From: Promethearchaeia archaeon
GTDB lineage: Archaea; Asgardarchaeota; Lokiarchaeia; Sigyniarchaeales; SOKP01
Length of the DNA: 6,547 bases
Direction of reading: 5' to 3'
Assembly: GCA_046497275.1 (NCBI GenBank)
Contig: JAWOFX010000011.1
Span: 1 to 6,547, forward strand
Shown: in pieces, positions 1 to 6,547 of the stretch
Layout of the letters: each line of letters begins with the position of its first letter
How positions within the stretch are numbered: position 1 is the stretch's first letter
Program-made: the position numbers and the translations under genes
Notes under the pieces: generated by a model
The model's input: the letters and a program-made list of their open reading frames with translations, nothing else
What the model was told of the DNA's origin: nothing
Database searches by the model: none

Positions 1-66
1 AATTCAACTAAGATTAAAATAAACTAATTAGGAAATGAACATATTTTAGAAATTTAAATTTTTATC

Positions 67-1650
67 ATGATAAAAAAGAATTATGAATATAAATGGATTT
101 TTGAAGCTCCTGAAGCTATTTTGGCTTGCAAAGTTTTAAAATGTAATGAAAACTTATATCTTGTCTTTGGAGGGCATGATAAAAGTCTTTACATTATGGA
201 TCTTGAGATGAATATCATTGATTCTATTGAATTCGACGGATGGCTTAGATGTATTTATGCCATTGATATAGATAGAGATAATTGTGATGAAATTTTAGCT
301 GGAACAGGAGATGGTAATTTTCTCGTAATAAAATTCGATGAAAAACCAGAAAAATTGGTTGGATTAAAACATTATATAACCAATGGAAAAGTTTTATGTT
401 GCACTGCAGCAGATATAACTAGAAATGGACATCTTGAATTAATTATTGGAGGAGATAATAATAAACTTGAAATTTTTAAAGATTTCCTATCAAAATCTCC
501 AAAATTTATACAATATTATGAATCTTGGGTAACAGCATGTAACACTGGGTTATTAAAGCTTCAAAACATCACCACACCCATTATGGGTTTAATAATTGGA
601 ACTAAAAAGGGATTAATTCAACTAATACATATAGAAAATGATGATCTCAAAATCTATTGGCATAAAGACTTGAACGGTAAAATAAATGACATTCAAATCG
701 CTGATATTAACCATGATGGGGATAATGAAATAATTATATGTTCAGATGATTTCCAAATTAAGATATTTAATAGTAATGGTGATTGTTTAGATTCTATTTA
801 TGTTTCAAATGGAAGACCTTTATCCTTATTAATAGAAGATGTAGATGGGGATAATTCAAATGAAATAATTGCAGGCTGTGCGAATGGAAATTTATGTGTC
901 TATCAAAATATCGGTGAAAACTCTGTTAATTTTGAATTAAAATGGAGTGCAAAAGCAAAATCTTCTATTCAAGATATTTCTTGTATAAAGAAAGACGCAG
1001 AAAGCTTAAAACAAGTTATATTTGGTGGATATGATAGAACTATAAGAAATATTGTAGATTTTGAATGGGGTGAAAGGAAAAAAATTGATATTCCAAAAAA
1101 AATTTCTCTACCCGAAGTTAAAATATCTTATGAGAAAAATTTAGAATACATGCCCACTAATTTAGATGAATTTATTGAAAAATTAGTTCGAGAAAATATA
1201 TATATAGATGTTGAAAATCTTACAAAAGATTTGGAGAAACTTGGTTATCCTAAAGATCTAATTAAAAAAAAAGTAAACAATTTAATAGAGAACAATCAAT
1301 TAGTCTTAAGAACAAAAAATTTAGATATATGGCATTATATTAAAAAGCTTGACGAATTAAAAATAAAACAAAACACTAAACAATCAGAAACGAAAGTTAT
1401 TGAAAATAAAACGGAAGATCAGCAAGAACTTAAAAATGAGAATCCTAAACTCCTTAAAGATTTAATTATAGAAATATTAAAACAGAAAGGTAACATTTCT
1501 ACAAAAGCAGAATTAATAAATCTGGTTTCTCAAAAAGGATTTCCAAAAAAGAAAATAGAATCACAAATAGACTCTTTAAGCGAAAAAAATATTGTTTTTT
1601 ATTCTCATTCAACCCCTCGGGGATGGTCTTTAAAATCAGACGATGTCTAA
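67..1650 (+). CDS. Seven-bladed beta-propeller protein (FG-GAP-like/WD40-like blades; BBS2/ITFG2-like) with two C-terminal winged-helix repeats
   Basis: 527-aa ORF. Residues ~6-330 split into seven ~40-50 aa blades; four carry the FG-GAP-like loop (DIDRDNCDEILAG, DITRNGHLELIIG, DINHDGDNEIIIC, DVDGDNSNEIIAG) and others end in WD40-like GGHDKSLYIMD / GGYDRTIRNI. Residues ~365-424 and ~462-522 are mutually alignable helix-helix-helix-wing repeats (G[YF]PK..I...[VI]..L.E.N...W) separated by a K/E/Q/N-rich linker. No signal peptide or TM segment is evident. Confidence 0.8.
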   Translation: MIKKNYEYKWIFEAPEAILACKVLKCNENLYLVFGGHDKSLYIMDLEMNIIDSIEFDGWLRCIYAIDIDRDNCDEILAGTGDGNFLVIKFDEKPEKLVGLKHYITNGKVLCCTAADITRNGHLELIIGGDNNKLEIFKDFLSKSPKFIQYYESWVTACNTGLLKLQNITTPIMGLIIGTKKGLIQLIHIENDDLKIYWHKDLNGKINDIQIADINHDGDNEIIICSDDFQIKIFNSNGDCLDSIYVSNGRPLSLLIEDVDGDNSNEIIAGCANGNLCVYQNIGENSVNFELKWSAKAKSSIQDISCIKKDAESLKQVIFGGYDRTIRNIVDFEWGERKKIDIPKKISLPEVKISYEKNLEYMPTNLDEFIEKLVRENIYIDVENLTKDLEKLGYPKDLIKKKVNNLIENNQLVLRTKNLDIWHYIKKLDELKIKQNTKQSETKVIENKTEDQQELKNENPKLLKDLIIEILKQKGNISTKAELINLVSQKGFPKKKIESQIDSLSEKNIVFYSHSTPRGWSLKSDDV

Positions 1651-1695
1651 ATGTAATTTATTAATCTTAAATTTTAATTTAAAATTTCTTATATT
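1650..1695. terminator. Short convergent intergenic region with T/A tracts and an AT-only hairpin (AAATTTTA-ATT-TAAAATTT, 1669-1687); possible bidirectional terminator
   Basis: 44-bp gap between two convergent stop codons; 8-bp AT-only inverted repeat; oligo-T runs on both strands. AT-only palindromes arise easily by chance in this DNA. Confidence 0.3.
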
Positions 1696-2123
1696 TAATC
1701 AAAAAACTTTTCTAATTCCTGTTCGAAAGATTCAAATTTATTTAATTCTGTAAAATCCGCTTCATTATATGATGTAATAAAGTACTGCATAATAGGAGTA
1801 ATTTTTTCAAAAAATTTATCTACATATTTATCTGGATTTCTCTGATTTTCCACTAACCCATACATTATAATCGGTTCTTTTTTGTTGCTATCTCCCGCTT
1901 TTATTTCATTTATTTTAAAGATAAATAGTAAATCCTTCATTTCAAGATACTCAAGGGAACTATTAATAAATGCCTGACTGGCAAAGGTATTAATTGCACT
2001 GATAAAGGCACCTCGTAAATCCTCATCTGTTTCTTTTTTATTAGGTTTGGGAATCTCTCGAAATTTATGTTTTACAAGTACAAAACCCCGAAAAACTAAA
2101 CCTATTTCAAATAAATCCTTCAT
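1695..2123 (-). CDS. Stand-alone longin-fold protein (TRAPP/sedlin-sybindin, AP-sigma or Fuz/Mon1-type longin-like)
   Basis: 142 aa. Predicted element order b1 (EIGLVF), b2 (FVLVKHKF), a1 (DEDLRGAFISAINTFASQAF), b3 (LEYLEM), b4 (LLFIFKI), b5 (IIMYGLV), a2 (DKYVDKFFEKITPIMQYFITSY), a3 (FESFEQELEKFF) matches the longin bb-a-bbb-aa topology and size. The D..L..[AG]F.SAI..FA helix is typical of Asgard longin-like proteins (recalled, not searched). Confidence 0.7.
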   Translation of the reverse strand: MKDLFEIGLVFRGFVLVKHKFREIPKPNKKETDEDLRGAFISAINTFASQAFINSSLEYLEMKDLLFIFKINEIKAGDSNKKEPIIMYGLVENQRNPDKYVDKFFEKITPIMQYFITSYNEADFTELNKFESFEQELEKFFD

Positions 2124-2270
2124 AATGAACGAAAATACTATTATTTATAACGATTGAATCAACGCTTTTTATATTTTTGTAATAAAAAAATAATTCCGCA
2201 TATTTAATTTTATAACCTTTCTTTAAAAAGGGTTCTAAATTATACTAAGTGATTCTTAAGATATATATTA

Positions 2271-2275
2271 GAGGT
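2271..2275 (+). promoter_or_regulatory. Shine-Dalgarno-like GAGGT upstream of the small Cys-rich gene
   Basis: GAGGT at 2271-2275 lies 8 nt before a TTG at 2284, the same geometry as GAGGT 4922-4926 / TTG 4935. Confidence 0.55.
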
Positions 2276-2277
2276 TT

Positions 2278-2481
2278 TTGAAATTGGGGAAAATTTGTAA
2301 ATGGTATTACTGCTGTCCCATTAAATATTATACCGATCGAGGGGAGCTTGATAAGAAATGGGTTGAGAATTATTGCTTAGTTAATAATCATGAATGTGTT
2401 AGGTATCAAATGGAGGAAAGCGGCACCCCTCATCCCAATAATATGCTTCCTAATGGCGAAATAAGAGAAGATTTAAAATAG
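2278..2481 (+). CDS. Small conserved Cys-rich (probable metal/Fe-S-binding) hypothetical protein; true start probably TTG at 2284
   Basis: 67 aa (65 aa from 2284). Pattern CKWYYCCP...G.LD.KW...YC......CVRY.MEE.G..HP..MLPNG matches a small prokaryotic family that I recall often carrying a doubtful 'uracil-DNA glycosylase' label. It is far too short for a UDG fold. SD-like GAGGT upstream. Confidence 0.7.
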   Translation: MKLGKICKWYYCCPIKYYTDRGELDKKWVENYCLVNNHECVRYQMEESGTPHPNNMLPNGEIREDLK

Positions 2482-3153
2482 GATCCGATCTCCCACACAT
2501 ATCTTTTTATAATAATTTGGAAATCGTTTCTTAATTGCTTCAATATGGGAAGTACAATGACACGCTCCGATTATATCTATACCCTCGAGATAGGAATATT
2601 TTCGAAAGCCATGAAAACCTCCTACAACTCCTTTTACTTTACCCATGTCTCGTGCTTTCATTATGAAATTTTCCAGTCCAGGATGGGTGCAACCTACAAT
2701 AATAAAAAAGTCTCTCTCTTTTTTTAGATAGAGTGATTGTTCTTTTATGGAGGATCCAATTTGTCCGGAACTTATCATATTCGTTTCTATTTCATGAGGT
2801 TTACTAACTCCGACAATGTTTTGCTGAGGATACTTTCTTTGAAAGGATTTCAAATTAGCTTTTGGGATAAAAATCTTGACTTCAGGATTTTGAGCCACTA
2901 CATGACTTAATCCCCCACTATGATCAAAGTGTGAATGTGAGATAATCACATTTTTTATGATATCAGTCTCAACATCAAATTGTTGTAGATTATGCAGTAA
3001 AACTCTCCCATCACCACCAGTATCAAATAAGGAATAATTTTGGGTATAAGAATTATAAATCAGAGCAGAAAACCCAAATCCCGTTAAAAATCCTTCCTTA
3101 AAACATTTATTATCAAATAAGATGGATATTTCGAAAGATCTATTTGAATTCAT
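2473..3153 (-). CDS. MBL-fold metallo-hydrolase, DHPS-like (MJ0301-type)/Tflp subfamily
   Basis: 226 aa with LFDTG, the metal motif ISHSHFDHSGGL (HxHxDH), GCTHPG, GGFH and CHCT, the ordered motif set of this MBL subfamily. The substrate cannot be determined from sequence. Confidence 0.9.
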   Translation of the reverse strand: MNSNRSFEISILFDNKCFKEGFLTGFGFSALIYNSYTQNYSLFDTGGDGRVLLHNLQQFDVETDIIKNVIISHSHFDHSGGLSHVVAQNPEVKIFIPKANLKSFQRKYPQQNIVGVSKPHEIETNMISSGQIGSSIKEQSLYLKKERDFFIIVGCTHPGLENFIMKARDMGKVKGVVGGFHGFRKYSYLEGIDIIGACHCTSHIEAIKKRFPNYYKKICVGDRILF

Positions 3154-3272
3154 TTGAATGAATGTATACTATAAATTGATTATAACAAAATTTCTTATAT
3201 AATTGAATAATCATTCTTAATTATTTAATATAGCATATTGGACTAACTCTTATCATTTTCTCGAAACTTTAT

Positions 3273-3425
3273 TTAGAACTGCAAAATATCTCCAACAAAA
3301 ATTTCTTTACTATGGTTTGGAAATCTGCTAAAAAATTCTTCTCTATATTGAGTAAAATGACAAGGATAAATATTATCAATATGTTCTAATGCCCAAAACA
3401 TTCTAAAACCATGAAAACCCCCAAC
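3273..3425 (-). pseudogene. C-terminal remnant (50 codons + stop) of a second MBL-fold hydrolase, paralogous to 2473..3153
   Basis: Minus-strand translation VGGFHGFRMFWALEHIDNIYPCHFTQYREEFFSRFPNHSKEIFVGDILQF* aligns without gaps to the last 50 aa of the neighbouring MBL gene (VGGFHGFRKYSYLEGIDIIGACHCTSHIEAIKKRFPNYYKKICVGDRILF*): 27/50 identical, stop in the same position. It lacks the N-terminal HxHxDH half and is absent from the ORF track. Confidence 0.85.
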
Positions 3426-3472
3426 TTCCTCTTTAATAAAATAATTATTATTTCCAATCCTTTTTTTCCTAA

Positions 3473-4267
3473 TTATTTCTTTATTAATTTAATTGCATTA
3501 TTTGGACATTTTGATATACATATGCCACATCCAAAGCAAAAATGAGGGTCAAATTCCAATTTATCTTTATTACTTTGTCTAGCATTAAAATAACACCAAT
3601 CTACACAATCTCCACATCCATTACAAACTGATAAATTTGTCTCAGAAATAAAATTACTTTTTATCATTTGAGGAGAACCCGATTTGAGAAACTTTTTCAA
3701 CACCACGCAACAACATGGACAGCAATTACAAATAACATAATAAAAATCAGGGTTTGGAAAATAAATAAGTTGATGGATGAGTCCTATATCATCACATTCT
3801 TCTAAGAGTTTAATAATCTCCTTCTTATCTACTTTTTTAAGATTCTCAGATTTATAGGGAATTTCATACAGAGACTGTCCAAAACTGATATGAATACATG
3901 TCTTAAGTGGATGATTACAATTAGGTTCATTAAATGCTCTTTGGATCATTCTGCAATAACAGTAAGAGACACCAGTTATATTTGATCTTTTAATGATTTC
4001 CAATATTTCTTCAGTTGGGCTGAATTTTGTCCTCAGAGGGATATTTCGATTTAATGGTACAACTCTTCCGCCCCATCTTCCATGTAAAAGGTGTTTATCT
4101 ATAATACCTAAAGAGTAGATTTTGAAACGAACATTCAATCTCCTAAAAAGTTCAAGAATCGGTAATTCTAATAAACCGACAATCGAAGTTACAATTTTTC
4201 CAAGTAATGGAATTCGAGCTAATAACGAATCTAAAATTTTTCCTATAGTTTTTCTTGAAGAGCGCAT
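3473..4267 (-). CDS. Iron-sulfur protein: C-terminal 2x[4Fe-4S] ferredoxin domain plus a Cys-rich middle domain (CxC, CNCCxCCC)
   Basis: 264 aa with CNGCGDCVDWC and CFGCGICISKCP ferredoxin motifs, and upstream YCYCR, CNHPLKTC and ICNCCPCCC (19 Cys in total). This architecture is known from anaerobic bacteria and archaea; function unassigned. Confidence 0.85.
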   Translation of the reverse strand: MRSSRKTIGKILDSLLARIPLLGKIVTSIVGLLELPILELFRRLNVRFKIYSLGIIDKHLLHGRWGGRVVPLNRNIPLRTKFSPTEEILEIIKRSNITGVSYCYCRMIQRAFNEPNCNHPLKTCIHISFGQSLYEIPYKSENLKKVDKKEIIKLLEECDDIGLIHQLIYFPNPDFYYVICNCCPCCCVVLKKFLKSGSPQMIKSNFISETNLSVCNGCGDCVDWCYFNARQSNKDKLEFDPHFCFGCGICISKCPNNAIKLIKK

Positions 4268-4308
4268 GCTTTTTTAATACACTTATTAACTTCTTTAACT
4301 AAGTAATA

Positions 4309-4341
4309 TAAAATGCAATTAATTATTTTTCTTGCATTTTA
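4309..4341. promoter_or_regulatory. Perfect 10-bp inverted repeat TAAAATGCAA-N13-TTGCATTTTA in the divergent promoter; candidate operator
   Basis: Arms at 4309-4318 and 4332-4341 are exact reverse complements. They lie in the 97-bp gap between the divergent 4Fe-4S gene (start 4267, -) and the first C_GCAxxG_C_C gene (start 4365, +). Confidence 0.5.
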
Positions 4342-4364
4342 ATTTTTAAAAATAGGCTTTTTAC

Positions 4365-4883
4365 ATGGTAGATTTTAAAGAAGAAATTTTAAATAAAGCA
4401 AAAGAATTGGGCATAAAATATGAGCAAAAATGTACTGGATGTGCTCAAACTGCGATTGCCGCTATATTTGAAGCATTGGGAATATGGAATGATGATGTTT
4501 TTAAATCTGCGAGTGGTTTAGCAGATGGATTAGGATTGACAGGGGATGGTGCTTGTGGTGCATTAGTAGGCGCATCTATGATAATTGGTTATTTATTTGG
4601 AAGAGAAAAGGAACATTTTAAAGATATGTATAAACCTATGAAATCCTATAAGCTTGTGAAAGAACTTCACGATAAATATATTCAAAAATATGGGACTTGC
4701 CGATGTTATGATGTCCAAACCGCAACGATGGGTCGTACATTTAATTTATGGGATAAAAATGGAATGAAAGAGGCAATAAAATTTGGAATGATGGAAAATT
4801 GTTCAAAAATTGTTGGAGATGTTGCGAAAATGGCGACTGAAATTATTCTTAATAATGGATTCTCTCCCAAAAGTCAAGATTAA
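4365..4883 (+). CDS. C_GCAxxG_C_C family putative redox-active protein (copy 1)
   Basis: 172 aa with CTGCAQ, GLADGLG, GACGALVG, KYGTCRC and a terminal NCSKIV helix: the four-Cys signature and CGAxxG motif of PF09719/TIGR01909. Confidence 0.9.
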   Translation: MVDFKEEILNKAKELGIKYEQKCTGCAQTAIAAIFEALGIWNDDVFKSASGLADGLGLTGDGACGALVGASMIIGYLFGREKEHFKDMYKPMKSYKLVKELHDKYIQKYGTCRCYDVQTATMGRTFNLWDKNGMKEAIKFGMMENCSKIVGDVAKMATEIILNNGFSPKSQD

Positions 4884-4921
4884 CAATAGAAGTAAAATAA
4901 TCATAAAAATAAAGAAAAGAA

Positions 4922-4926
4922 GAGGT
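4922..4926 (+). promoter_or_regulatory. Shine-Dalgarno-like GAGGT for the second C_GCAxxG_C_C gene
   Basis: GAGGT 8 nt upstream of the TTG start at 4935, within a 51-bp intergenic gap. Confidence 0.6.
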
Positions 4927-4934
4927 TTTAAATA

Positions 4935-5447
4935 TTGTCAGAGGATATACAAAAAAAATTTGATGAAAAAGTTAAAGAACTTAAAGGTTCCTTACCCGAA
5001 CTTAGGAAAGGAGTTAACTGTTGTGAATTAACTTTTACCAGTATATTAGATATTTTAGGAGTGGACAATTATATGTTTCATAATCTCGCTATGCCCTTGG
5101 CAGGAGGTTTTGGAGGATATAAATCTAAAGGAGGATGGCAAGGGGCATGTGGAGCTGTTATTGGTGCTTGTGCTGCAATTGGTATTATTATGGGTGGAGA
5201 TAAGAAAATGGATCCCGTAACAATGTCTATGGCTTATCTTAAGGCATCTAAATATTGCACTGAGTTTGAAGAGAAATTTGGTACTGTGGTTTGCGCAGAT
5301 TTATGTGGGTATGATTTTAGTGATCCAAAAGGAATGCAAAATTACCAAGAAAATGATGTTTGGAAAAAAACTTGTTATAAATTTGTAGTATGGGCTGTCG
5401 ATAGGGTGCGAAAAATAACAAGAAAAGATCTCAAGAGAAAATGGTAA
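4935..5447 (+). CDS. C_GCAxxG_C_C family putative redox-active protein (copy 2)
   Basis: 170 aa with TTG start and SD; NCCE, LAGGFGG, GACGAVIG, KFGTVVC and terminal TCYKFV give the same four-Cys framework as copy 1. Confidence 0.9.
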   Translation: MSEDIQKKFDEKVKELKGSLPELRKGVNCCELTFTSILDILGVDNYMFHNLAMPLAGGFGGYKSKGGWQGACGAVIGACAAIGIIMGGDKKMDPVTMSMAYLKASKYCTEFEEKFGTVVCADLCGYDFSDPKGMQNYQENDVWKKTCYKFVVWAVDRVRKITRKDLKRKW

Positions 5448-5573
5448 AATTGGATATGCTTATAATAAATCTTAAAACTTAAATTAAATTGATTTCATCA
5501 TAATTATATATTAAAATGTTTTTATATTATTCTGAGATAAAAGTATGAATTAATAGTATACAGGCGAATTATT

Positions 5574-5822
5574 ATGTCCGAAAACAATGAAAAAATAACA
5601 ACCTGTCCCTATTGCGGAGCGAAACTAAAACATCCCTATTGGGCCCATGTTCAAGAAAAACATCCAGAAGAATATCAGAAAAAACAAACGTGGGTGAAAC
5701 TTTTCGAAGATTATAGAGGAATGGGGATGGATGTTAATATTTCACTTCATGTTATCGGTGAGTTATTCAATGTGGAACCTGAAGAGGTTCGCTTCTTTTT
5801 AGAACAAAATAATATTTTATAA
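5574..5822 (+). CDS. Small C2H2-type zinc-finger protein with a C-terminal helical (HTH-like) domain
   Basis: 82 aa with CPYC-x10-H-x4-H (CPYCGAKLKHPYWAHVQEKH), followed by three predicted helices ending VIGELFNVEPEEVRFFL. SD-like AGGCGA upstream. Confidence 0.7.
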   Translation: MSENNEKITTCPYCGAKLKHPYWAHVQEKHPEEYQKKQTWVKLFEDYRGMGMDVNISLHVIGELFNVEPEEVRFFLEQNNIL

Positions 5823-5954
5823 TTTTTATATTGATTTTTTTAAATATGTTATAATAGAAACCAAAACAAAATTGATATAGTTGTAATTGTTTAACTAATT
5901 TAAAAAGAATAGAATAAAAAAATAATAGGAAGAAAAATATTATAAATAATTTAA

Positions 5955-6242
5955 TTAGAACTCTTCTTCTTCAAATTCGTCCTTCAAGAGACCTGCTTGT
6001 TTAAGTAAATCTTCAACAGAATCTCTGGCTTTAATAACTTGATCATTATCTCTAAGATTCAAGTTATCAATCACTGAATCCGAAAATTCCATGAATTTTT
6101 TAATGCTTTGCGAGGAAAAATCTTTGACTTTCTCACTCGTCTCTTCAATAAATTCTCTTCCGGATTCACCAAATGCACTTTCTGCAAAATTTAACAAAGC
6201 TTCATTTAATTGATCGAGAATATTCTTTTTTTCTTCACTCAT
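5955..6242 (-). CDS. Acidic all-helical hypothetical protein
   Basis: 95-aa ORF with ATG start, protein-like amphipathic periodicity, no Cys/Trp/Tyr/His/Pro, and an acidic tail DEFEEEEF. It is flanked by AT-rich intergenic DNA. Family not recognised. Confidence 0.7.
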   Translation of the reverse strand: MSEEKKNILDQLNEALLNFAESAFGESGREFIEETSEKVKDFSSQSIKKFMEFSDSVIDNLNLRDNDQVIKARDSVEDLLKQAGLLKDEFEEEEF

Positions 6243-6547
6243 ATAAATCGCTTATATTTTATTGTTTTAAATTTAAAAATATTTAATTCATTTAAAAATT
6301 GTGCTATAACTACCCATATTTGTTATATGATTTTGGTAATATAAAAATTAAAACAAAAATTGAGTATATTTTTTGTTTTTTCTTTTTGACTGAATTTGAA
6401 AAATCTTTAATTCAAAACCGACAATAATCTTGGCTATGCCAATTCTTTTAATGTCGGAAGAGATGGAGCAATGTTTTTTGAATGAAAATCGCCCTTTTGT
6501 CCATTTTTGATGAGAAAATTGCTGTTCTTGATCATTTTTGAATATTT

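Follow-up and report, generated by a model that had tools for sequence, protein, structure and literature searches.

The window analysed here is a stretch of 6,547 nucleotides (nt) from the assembly of a Promethearchaeia archaeon (GCA_046497275.1, contig JAWOFX010000011.1, positions 1 to 6,547 of the forward strand), one of the Asgard archaea. Its nt 67-1650 (+) are a single long open reading frame (ORF) for a protein of 527 amino acids (aa), P0001, in which a seven-blade beta-propeller is followed by two winged helices (WHs), WH1 and WH2, on either side of a linker. A first-pass annotation had compared the repeats at nt 1159-1632 (aa 365-522) with Z-alpha, the domain by which ADAR1 and ZBP1 bind Z-DNA and Z-RNA. 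Judged by their residues, the WH repeats are very probably not a reader of Z-DNA or Z-RNA: the pair of side chains that reads the left-handed helix is absent in every relative. We favour, with moderate confidence, the view that the WH tail is a tethered protein-docking module of variable copy number on a BBS/ITFG2-like propeller of Asgard archaea. The tail is a previously unmodelled winged-helix subtype on which every Pfam family stays under its cut-off, and it is almost confined to one order of these archaea.

Over 145 full-length orthologs of P0001 (40-92% identity) were collected, all from Asgard metagenome-assembled genomes, and 82 of them were aligned (A1), with A2 covering the C-terminal region, A3 repeat 1 and A4 repeat 2. 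The full-length AlphaFold2 model of P0001 has a mean predicted local distance difference test (pLDDT) of 87 and a predicted template modelling score of 0.76. The two repeats postulated in the first-pass annotation are indeed WH domains, and both peptides it had quoted are present. In the full-length model, WH1 (aa 363-425; nt 1153-1341 (+)) has helices at 366-376, 382-391 and 396-408 and strands at 412-416 and 420-424; WH2 (aa 460-523; nt 1444-1635 (+)), the repeat that had been aligned to ADAR1, has helices at 460-474, 480-488 and 494-506 and strands at 510-513 and 519-522. Both follow the winged-helix order H1-(b1)-H2-H3-b2-b3 and show the three-helix bundle, the two- or three-stranded antiparallel sheet and the hairpin wing that define the fold at the superfamily level. 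The repeats reach a pLDDT of 71-86 when the tail is modelled alone and of 86-90 within the full-length protein, WH1 rising from 71-80 to 86-90. Comparison of the ortholog profiles A3 and A4 by hhalign yields a probability of 97.3% and an E value of 1.8e-11 over 63 columns; therefore, WH1 and WH2 are a true internal duplication. The strand opposite nt 1159-1632 carries no rival ORF of at least 60 aa.

The two copies differ in charge, number and conservation. WH1 is always single, acidic in most orthologs (mean net charge -4.4) and marked by a conserved P-T-N-I-R-E leading to helix 1 and by Y-P-V-W in the wing. In the connector between propeller and WH1, Pro343, Pro363, Asn365 and Arg367 are nearly invariant. 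WH2 is basic (mean net charge +3.1) and carries the signature G-F...I-E-K-E-I...I-x-Y-S-R-x-K-P-x-G-W, with I467, G491, Y512, S513, R514, P517, G519 and W520 invariant or nearly so. The charged linker between them (aa 426-459; nt 1342-1443 (+)) is disordered, with pLDDT below 50 for aa 428-458, and is gapped and variable in the ortholog alignments, where its length ranges from 30 to 100 aa. One to four distal copies of the WH2 type are found on the propeller protein; relatives with 57% identity (P0003, P0005), for instance, are longer by about 100 residues, among them a third WH that is a duplicate of WH2.

The propeller (aa 1-345; nt 67-1101 (+)) is of the FG-GAP type known from BBS2, BBS7 and ITFG2. 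It exceeds the Pfam cut-offs of Beta-prop_BBS7 (PF23743; 71.6-74 bits against 27, E 9e-20), BBS2_Mid (PF14783; 41.5-49 bits against 27), FG-GAP_3 and, when scanned alone, Itfg2 (PF15907; 31.2 bits against 27). In Foldseek it superposes on BBS2 (6voa_B) with a root-mean-square deviation (rmsd) of 3.3 over 333 columns; chains of ITFG2 from KICSTOR match it as well, amid generic WD40 propellers. A literature search on Asgard BBSome, ITFG2, BBS7 and FG-GAP proteins found one preprint, from 2026, that catalogues a BBS7/ITFG2 structural cluster of Asgard archaea and eukaryotes among signature proteins (10.64898/2026.10.28.762692); the WH tail is not covered there or elsewhere in the literature found.

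The distal WH is not restricted to the propeller protein. When 1.84 billion representative proteins were searched exhaustively with the WH2 profile in HMMER, only 81 matches at E <= 1e-3 were obtained, most of them the propeller protein itself, with two to four WH stretches, or pieces of it. In the remaining matches, the same type of WH with the signature I-x-Y-S-R-x-K-P-x-G-W ends other proteins, usually after a low-complexity linker. Among these carriers are a longin-domain protein (P0292; Fuz_longin_1 with E 1.3e-5 and 25.9 bits against a cut-off of 26.1), a C5 DNA methylase (P0300), a STAND/AAA-like ATPase (P0297), a protein consisting of a pair of these WHs with a Lys/Ala/Pro linker between them (P0244) and several small proteins with uncharacterised N-terminal domains. 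A Pfam scan of 30 proteins matched in this search found z-alpha in none of them. Of 200 sampled genomes of the phylum, 40 belong to the same GTDB family as the window, and 31 of these match the WH-tail profile; all three genomes of a sister family give weak matches, and no match was found in the 157 genomes from 25 other families. One sister-family genome (G089) encodes a 231-aa protein (L011:2589-3284 (+)) with an eL13-like start (weak, Pfam E 0.66) and a long histone-H1-like basic stretch of Lys, Thr, Pro and Ala, and it closes at the C-terminus with a single domain of the WH2 type, whose last residues are IKYSRTAPRGYSLN.

A flexibly tethered docking module would fit the combination of a fixed proximal WH, a disordered linker, distal WHs that come in one to four copies and also end unrelated proteins, a conserved helix-3 face of mixed charge and a basic hairpin. 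Cullin WHB, RPA32/Rpa2-C and MCM-C are C-terminal, flexibly attached WHs that dock proteins, and all three are among the best or tied structural analogues. As part of this reading, and held with the same moderate confidence, P0001 would be a cytoplasmic BBS2/BBS7/ITFG2-like protein with two diverged, lineage-specific WH copies at its C-terminus. WH1, as its raised pLDDT in the model of the whole protein suggests, probably sits against the propeller, to which the short conserved connector joins it, and would be a fixed part of the scaffold, and WH2 would act as a docking module at the end of a charged, disordered 'fishing line'. The exposed, conserved helix-3 face of WH2 (Glu498, Lys499, Asn/Asp502, Lys505, Glu506) and its basic hairpin (Arg514, Lys516, Lys518) would bind the partner together. 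We infer both that the ligand of WH2 is a protein and which one it would be, namely a partner also recognised by the WH2-type domains that end other proteins. P0001 would work within a conserved gene block whose other two products, described below, are a mu-homology-like protein of several beta-sandwiches and a longin-like one. Such a pattern of WH tails is what would be expected for a shared recruitment module, and WH2 could offer an experimental handle on what the propeller/beta-sandwich/longin-like block of these relatives of the eukaryotes assembles on.

Several observations weigh against the docking module. In the window's family, some genomes have the longin-like gene and lack the propeller-WH gene. 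WH2 is net basic with a conserved Arg/Lys hairpin, its relatives occur after histone-H1-like linkers of Lys, Ala and Pro as well as on a DNA methylase, and the DNA-binding WHs of SAMD1, MecI and IclR match it structurally as well as the protein-docking ones do.

The same basic charge, H1-like linkers on some carriers and the methylase are what speaks for the main and serious rival, according to which WH2 and its extra copies bind right-handed DNA, double-stranded RNA or structured RNA and thereby anchor their carriers to chromatin, ribosomes or RNA. We regard this as unlikely, though well worth keeping in mind. Glu498, found in 73 of the 82 orthologs, and Glu500/506 lie on the exposed helix-3 face, where DNA-binding WHs and Z-alpha contact phosphate or base; as conserved Glu is thus central in the would-be recognition face, both the Z-alpha mode and generic phosphate binding are disfavoured. 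Furthermore, WH1 is acidic, the DNA-binding families of Pfam all stay under their cut-offs, and most carriers are propeller or longin proteins with no link to nucleic acids.

Left-handed nucleic acid is a separate case. It would be bound if the repeats were true archaeal kin of the tandem Z-alpha/Z-beta domains in ADAR1, ZBP1 and PKZ and read left-handed or otherwise unusual nucleic acid through modified residues. A likeness does exist. The 30-residue distance from the glycine before helix 3 to the wing tryptophan, noted in the first-pass annotation, is exact in both repeats (Gly393-Trp422 and Gly491-Trp520, counted inclusively) and equals that of Z-alpha. The ADAR1 32-mer used there agrees letter for letter with the ADAR1 Z-alpha chains in the Protein Data Bank (PDB; 1qbj, 2acj, 9b83), and the ungapped alignment of WH2 to it again gives 11 identities in 32 positions. 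This count is, however, at chance level: six 32-mers in the six-frame ORFs of the genome (1.36 million residues) reach 11/32 to ADAR1, five of them unrelated, and raw identity was rejected as evidence for Z-alpha.

Profile searches leave the likeness below every threshold. Pfam z-alpha (PF02295) is the sole family to match WH2 of the window, with 13.6-13.8 bits (E 0.06-0.07; profile positions 6-64 of 67) against a curated gathering threshold of 21 bits, and it does not match WH1. When 77 orthologous WH2 domains were scanned singly against Pfam at E <= 1, the proposed ranking of z-alpha against other winged helix-turn-helix families turned out unfavourable to it: MCM5_C was matched by 49, TBPIP/Hop2 by 22, z-alpha by 9 and MCM_WH_arc by 8 (best E 2.2e-4), and no family exceeded its own cut-off. 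Over the whole genome, the z-alpha hidden Markov model (HMM) places WH2 second of four sub-threshold matches (12.5 bits, E 0.56), and it gives matches in 9 of 14 control prokaryote genomes, too. Against PDB sequences, the best full-length natural WH is PKZ Z-alpha for both the WH2 profile (E 0.13) and the WH1 profile (E 0.22); for WH2, TFE, MCM-C, Hop2 and ArgR trail it by a factor of a few.

Fold searches point the same way. The compact a1-b1-a2-a3-b2-b3 WH superposes on solved Z-alpha domains, and PKZ Z-alpha (4kmf_A) comes first in Foldseek against the PDB (E 4.2e-3, template modelling (TM) score 0.71, 23% identity). Cullin WHB (TM 0.77) and others are close behind, and no match reaches E 1e-3. 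Structural-match scores are highest for cullin WHB (9.7; rmsd 2.5-2.6 over 65-66 residues) and the SAMD1 WH (9.7), followed by the Pyrococcus abyssi Rpa2 WH (9.2), SSO6202 (9.1), MecI (9.1), PKZ Z-alpha (9.0-9.1), the Hel308 WH (9.0), MCM-C (8.8), ZBP1 (8.4) and ORF112 (8.3). A shape search of the ESM-Atlas returns the protein's own family, then TrmB-like and phage proteins, PKZ in row 5, and then IclR and PaaX regulators. Z-alpha is thus a recurrent neighbour of the compact, short-wing WH2, yet indistinguishable from several other WH families.

What decides the matter are the residues. In Z-alpha complexes, Asn173 and Tyr177 of ADAR1 read the syn-guanosine and the zig-zag backbone, as known from structures and mutagenesis. 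WH2 of the window has Glu498 and Asp502 in their place, and this replacement, which the first-pass annotation had pointed out for the single sequence, holds throughout the family: position 173 is Glu in the 73 of 82 orthologs mentioned above, and position 177 is Asn in 39 and Asp in 23. The A4-built HMM extracted 292 related WH domains including the wing from the orthologs and the exhaustive-search matches. None of the 292 has both Asn and Tyr at the two positions; Asn is found at the first in 8 and Tyr or Phe at the second in 2. Of the further correspondences claimed, those to Pro192 (Pro517) and Trp195 (Trp520) stand, with Pro and Trp each in 81 of 82 orthologs, and the Gly before helix 3 is invariant, whereas those to Lys169 (Lys in just 34/82), Lys170 (Asn, Ser or Thr) and Thr191 (Lys in 59/82) are not conserved. 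Arg174 corresponds to Lys in 62 of 82 orthologs, Pro193 to Lys or Arg. In any WH with a short wing, this Pro and Trp may play a structural part. With the Asn173/Tyr177 pair a defining feature is lost, and therefore membership in the functional Z-alpha family fails.

This evidence at the residue level is why the idea of an archaeal Z-DNA/Z-RNA sensor was set aside. A weaker form of it is a long shot: the YSRxKPxGW WH of Loki-type Asgard archaea might be the nearest sister that the Z-alpha fold of eukaryotes and viruses has among prokaryotes, a tethered docking module with wing Pro and Trp already in place from which Z-alpha arose later by acquiring the Asn/Tyr pair, or it might still recognise an unusual nucleic-acid or acidic-polymer surface via the same face. 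A paper on Z-alpha evolution names TFE of archaea and ArsR of bacteria but no Asgard proteins (PMC11293857). Genuine kinship with the ADAR1/ZBP1 tandem, the first of two explanations given in the first-pass annotation, is very improbable in spite of the search ranks of PKZ, the equal spacing and the conserved wing residues. The second, a rigid tandem-WH unit of the ESCRT-II type (Vps22/Vps25/Vps36) oligomerising with other tandem-WH subunits, is just as improbable: although an Asgard archaeon with ESCRT genes and two WHs per chain would fit, and EAP30 (PF04157, E 0.076) and ESCRT-II (PF05871, 5 of 77 members at E <= 1) match faintly, EAP30 reaches 13.2 bits where 26.8 are required, with a match that spans the disordered linker, no ESCRT-II chain stands among the matches listed in the fold searches (not treated as exclusion), and the analogy fails on architecture, the WHs being 30-100 aa apart (pLDDT below 50) and varying in number instead of packing tightly.

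As to the gene neighbourhood, the propeller-WH gene is followed by a convergent conserved gene for a longin-like protein of 142 aa, P0123 (nt 1695-2123 (-)). This gene is present in 40 of 40 genomes of the window's family and stands directly tail-to-tail with the WH-tail gene in 30 of the 31 that have the tail; NCBI locus tags of the two orthologs are consecutive. P0123 is a candidate longin protein on weaker leads: hhalign against the Fuz_longin_1-type domain of the WH2 carrier P0292 (probability 60%, E 8.5e-5) and one look-alike cluster in the ESM-atlas, where Fuz_longin_1 occurs in 34% of members, a lead only. Its profile against PDB sequences found two chance-level matches only (DEDDh, E 0.11).

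Upstream of the propeller-WH orthologs, a multi-beta-sandwich protein of 714-756 aa is encoded that contains DUF11 above its cut-off and a long poly-Glu/Asp tract. One ortholog matches Adap_comp_sub, a mu-homology family, with E 6.5e-6 and 26.1 bits, under the cut-off of 31.6. In the source genome, this gene lies at the end of another contig (G000:C161:243-2510 (-); 92% identical to an ortholog), and in the window contig only 66 nt precede the propeller gene; the two contigs probably adjoin in the genome, with the break in the spacer between the two genes. In three genera of the family, the longin-like gene is kept at the syntenic spot, the beta-sandwich and propeller-WH pair is missing there, and a diverged beta-sandwich paralog is found elsewhere only. 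The block is thus conserved yet not obligatory, because the longin-like gene persists without the propeller-WH gene. Its interpretation as an adaptor complex is unproven.

A number of further genes were noticed around these loci. In the window, a 67-aa Cys-rich ORF (nt 2278-2481 (+)) with the motif KICKWYYCCPIKYY...C...C has no Pfam match; the ortholog locus with 92% identity has a 65-aa counterpart in the corresponding place (L001:12218-12415). It is followed by a gene for a 226-aa metallo-beta-lactamase-fold protein (nt 2473-3153 (-)), whose orthologous product has a weak precomputed match to Anti-Pycsar Apyc1, by one for a 264-aa 4Fe-4S dicluster protein (nt 3473-4267, other strand) and by tandem genes for C_GCAxxG_C_C putative redox proteins (nt 4365-4883 (+) and 4935-5447 (+); E 4.5e-24 and 3.3e-17). 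Downstream of the propeller gene, the ortholog locus L002 (44% identity) again has a C_GCAxxG gene, together with a zinc-ribbon-like ORF of 80 aa and an acidic one of about 95 aa. At this one locus, a 451-aa protein with an Arf/Ras/Roc-type small-GTPase domain (L002:2376-3731 (-)) is encoded some 4 kb away on the upstream side of the beta-sandwich/propeller-WH pair. Genome G040, which lacks the propeller-WH gene, encodes a 377-aa protein (L017:5062-6195 (-)) convergent to a 720-aa beta-sandwich paralog; its N-terminal half looks gelsolin/villin-like by eye and its tail is basic and rich in Lys, Thr and Pro.

Metatranscriptome contigs from salt-lake samples (two studies, at least 99% identity) cover parts of the propeller-WH gene including nt 1085-1582, as well as the longin-like gene. 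One of them (run X4, 242 nt without mismatches, nt 1616-1857 of the window) bridges the 44-nt gap between the convergent stop codons, which could reflect overlapping 3' ends or DNA carry-over. As assembled contigs are no proof of transcription and such carry-over is possible, these contigs were not counted as evidence for expression.

What is new here is that Z-alpha is rejected at the residue level and that the distal WH proves modular and promiscuous. Among known systems, the Z-alpha domains of ADAR1, ZBP1, PKZ, E3L and ORF112 resemble WH2 in being compact WHs (about 65 aa) whose wing is a short beta-hairpin, as well as in the spacing and the wing Pro and Trp described above, and differ in the substituted reading pair, the unconserved Lys169, Lys170 and Thr191 equivalents and a match under every threshold; they reside on a deaminase, a kinase or a RHIM protein, whereas WH2 resides on a propeller protein from a different domain of life. 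Vps22, Vps25 and Vps36 of ESCRT-II resemble P0001 in having two WHs per polypeptide of an Asgard/eukaryotic-type protein, but their WH pairs are rigidly packed, those of P0001 sit in varying number on a long disordered linker, and no significant profile match connects them. Cullin WHB, RPA32-C and MCM-C are similar to WH2 in fold and attachment. A significant sequence relationship with them was not found, they serve ubiquitin ligation or replication partners without an evident link to a BBS-like propeller, and they do not vary between one and four copies. The propeller, finally, has its counterparts in BBS2, BBS7 and BBS9 of the BBSome and in ITFG2 of KICSTOR, all of which begin with a seven-blade FG-GAP-type propeller, although generic WD40 propellers match that of P0001 as well as BBS2 and ITFG2 do in Foldseek. 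In eukaryotic BBS proteins this propeller is followed by GAE, platform and helical domains, which are not present in the AlphaFold2 models of P0001, and in ITFG2 by nothing; in P0001, WH, linker and WH take their place.

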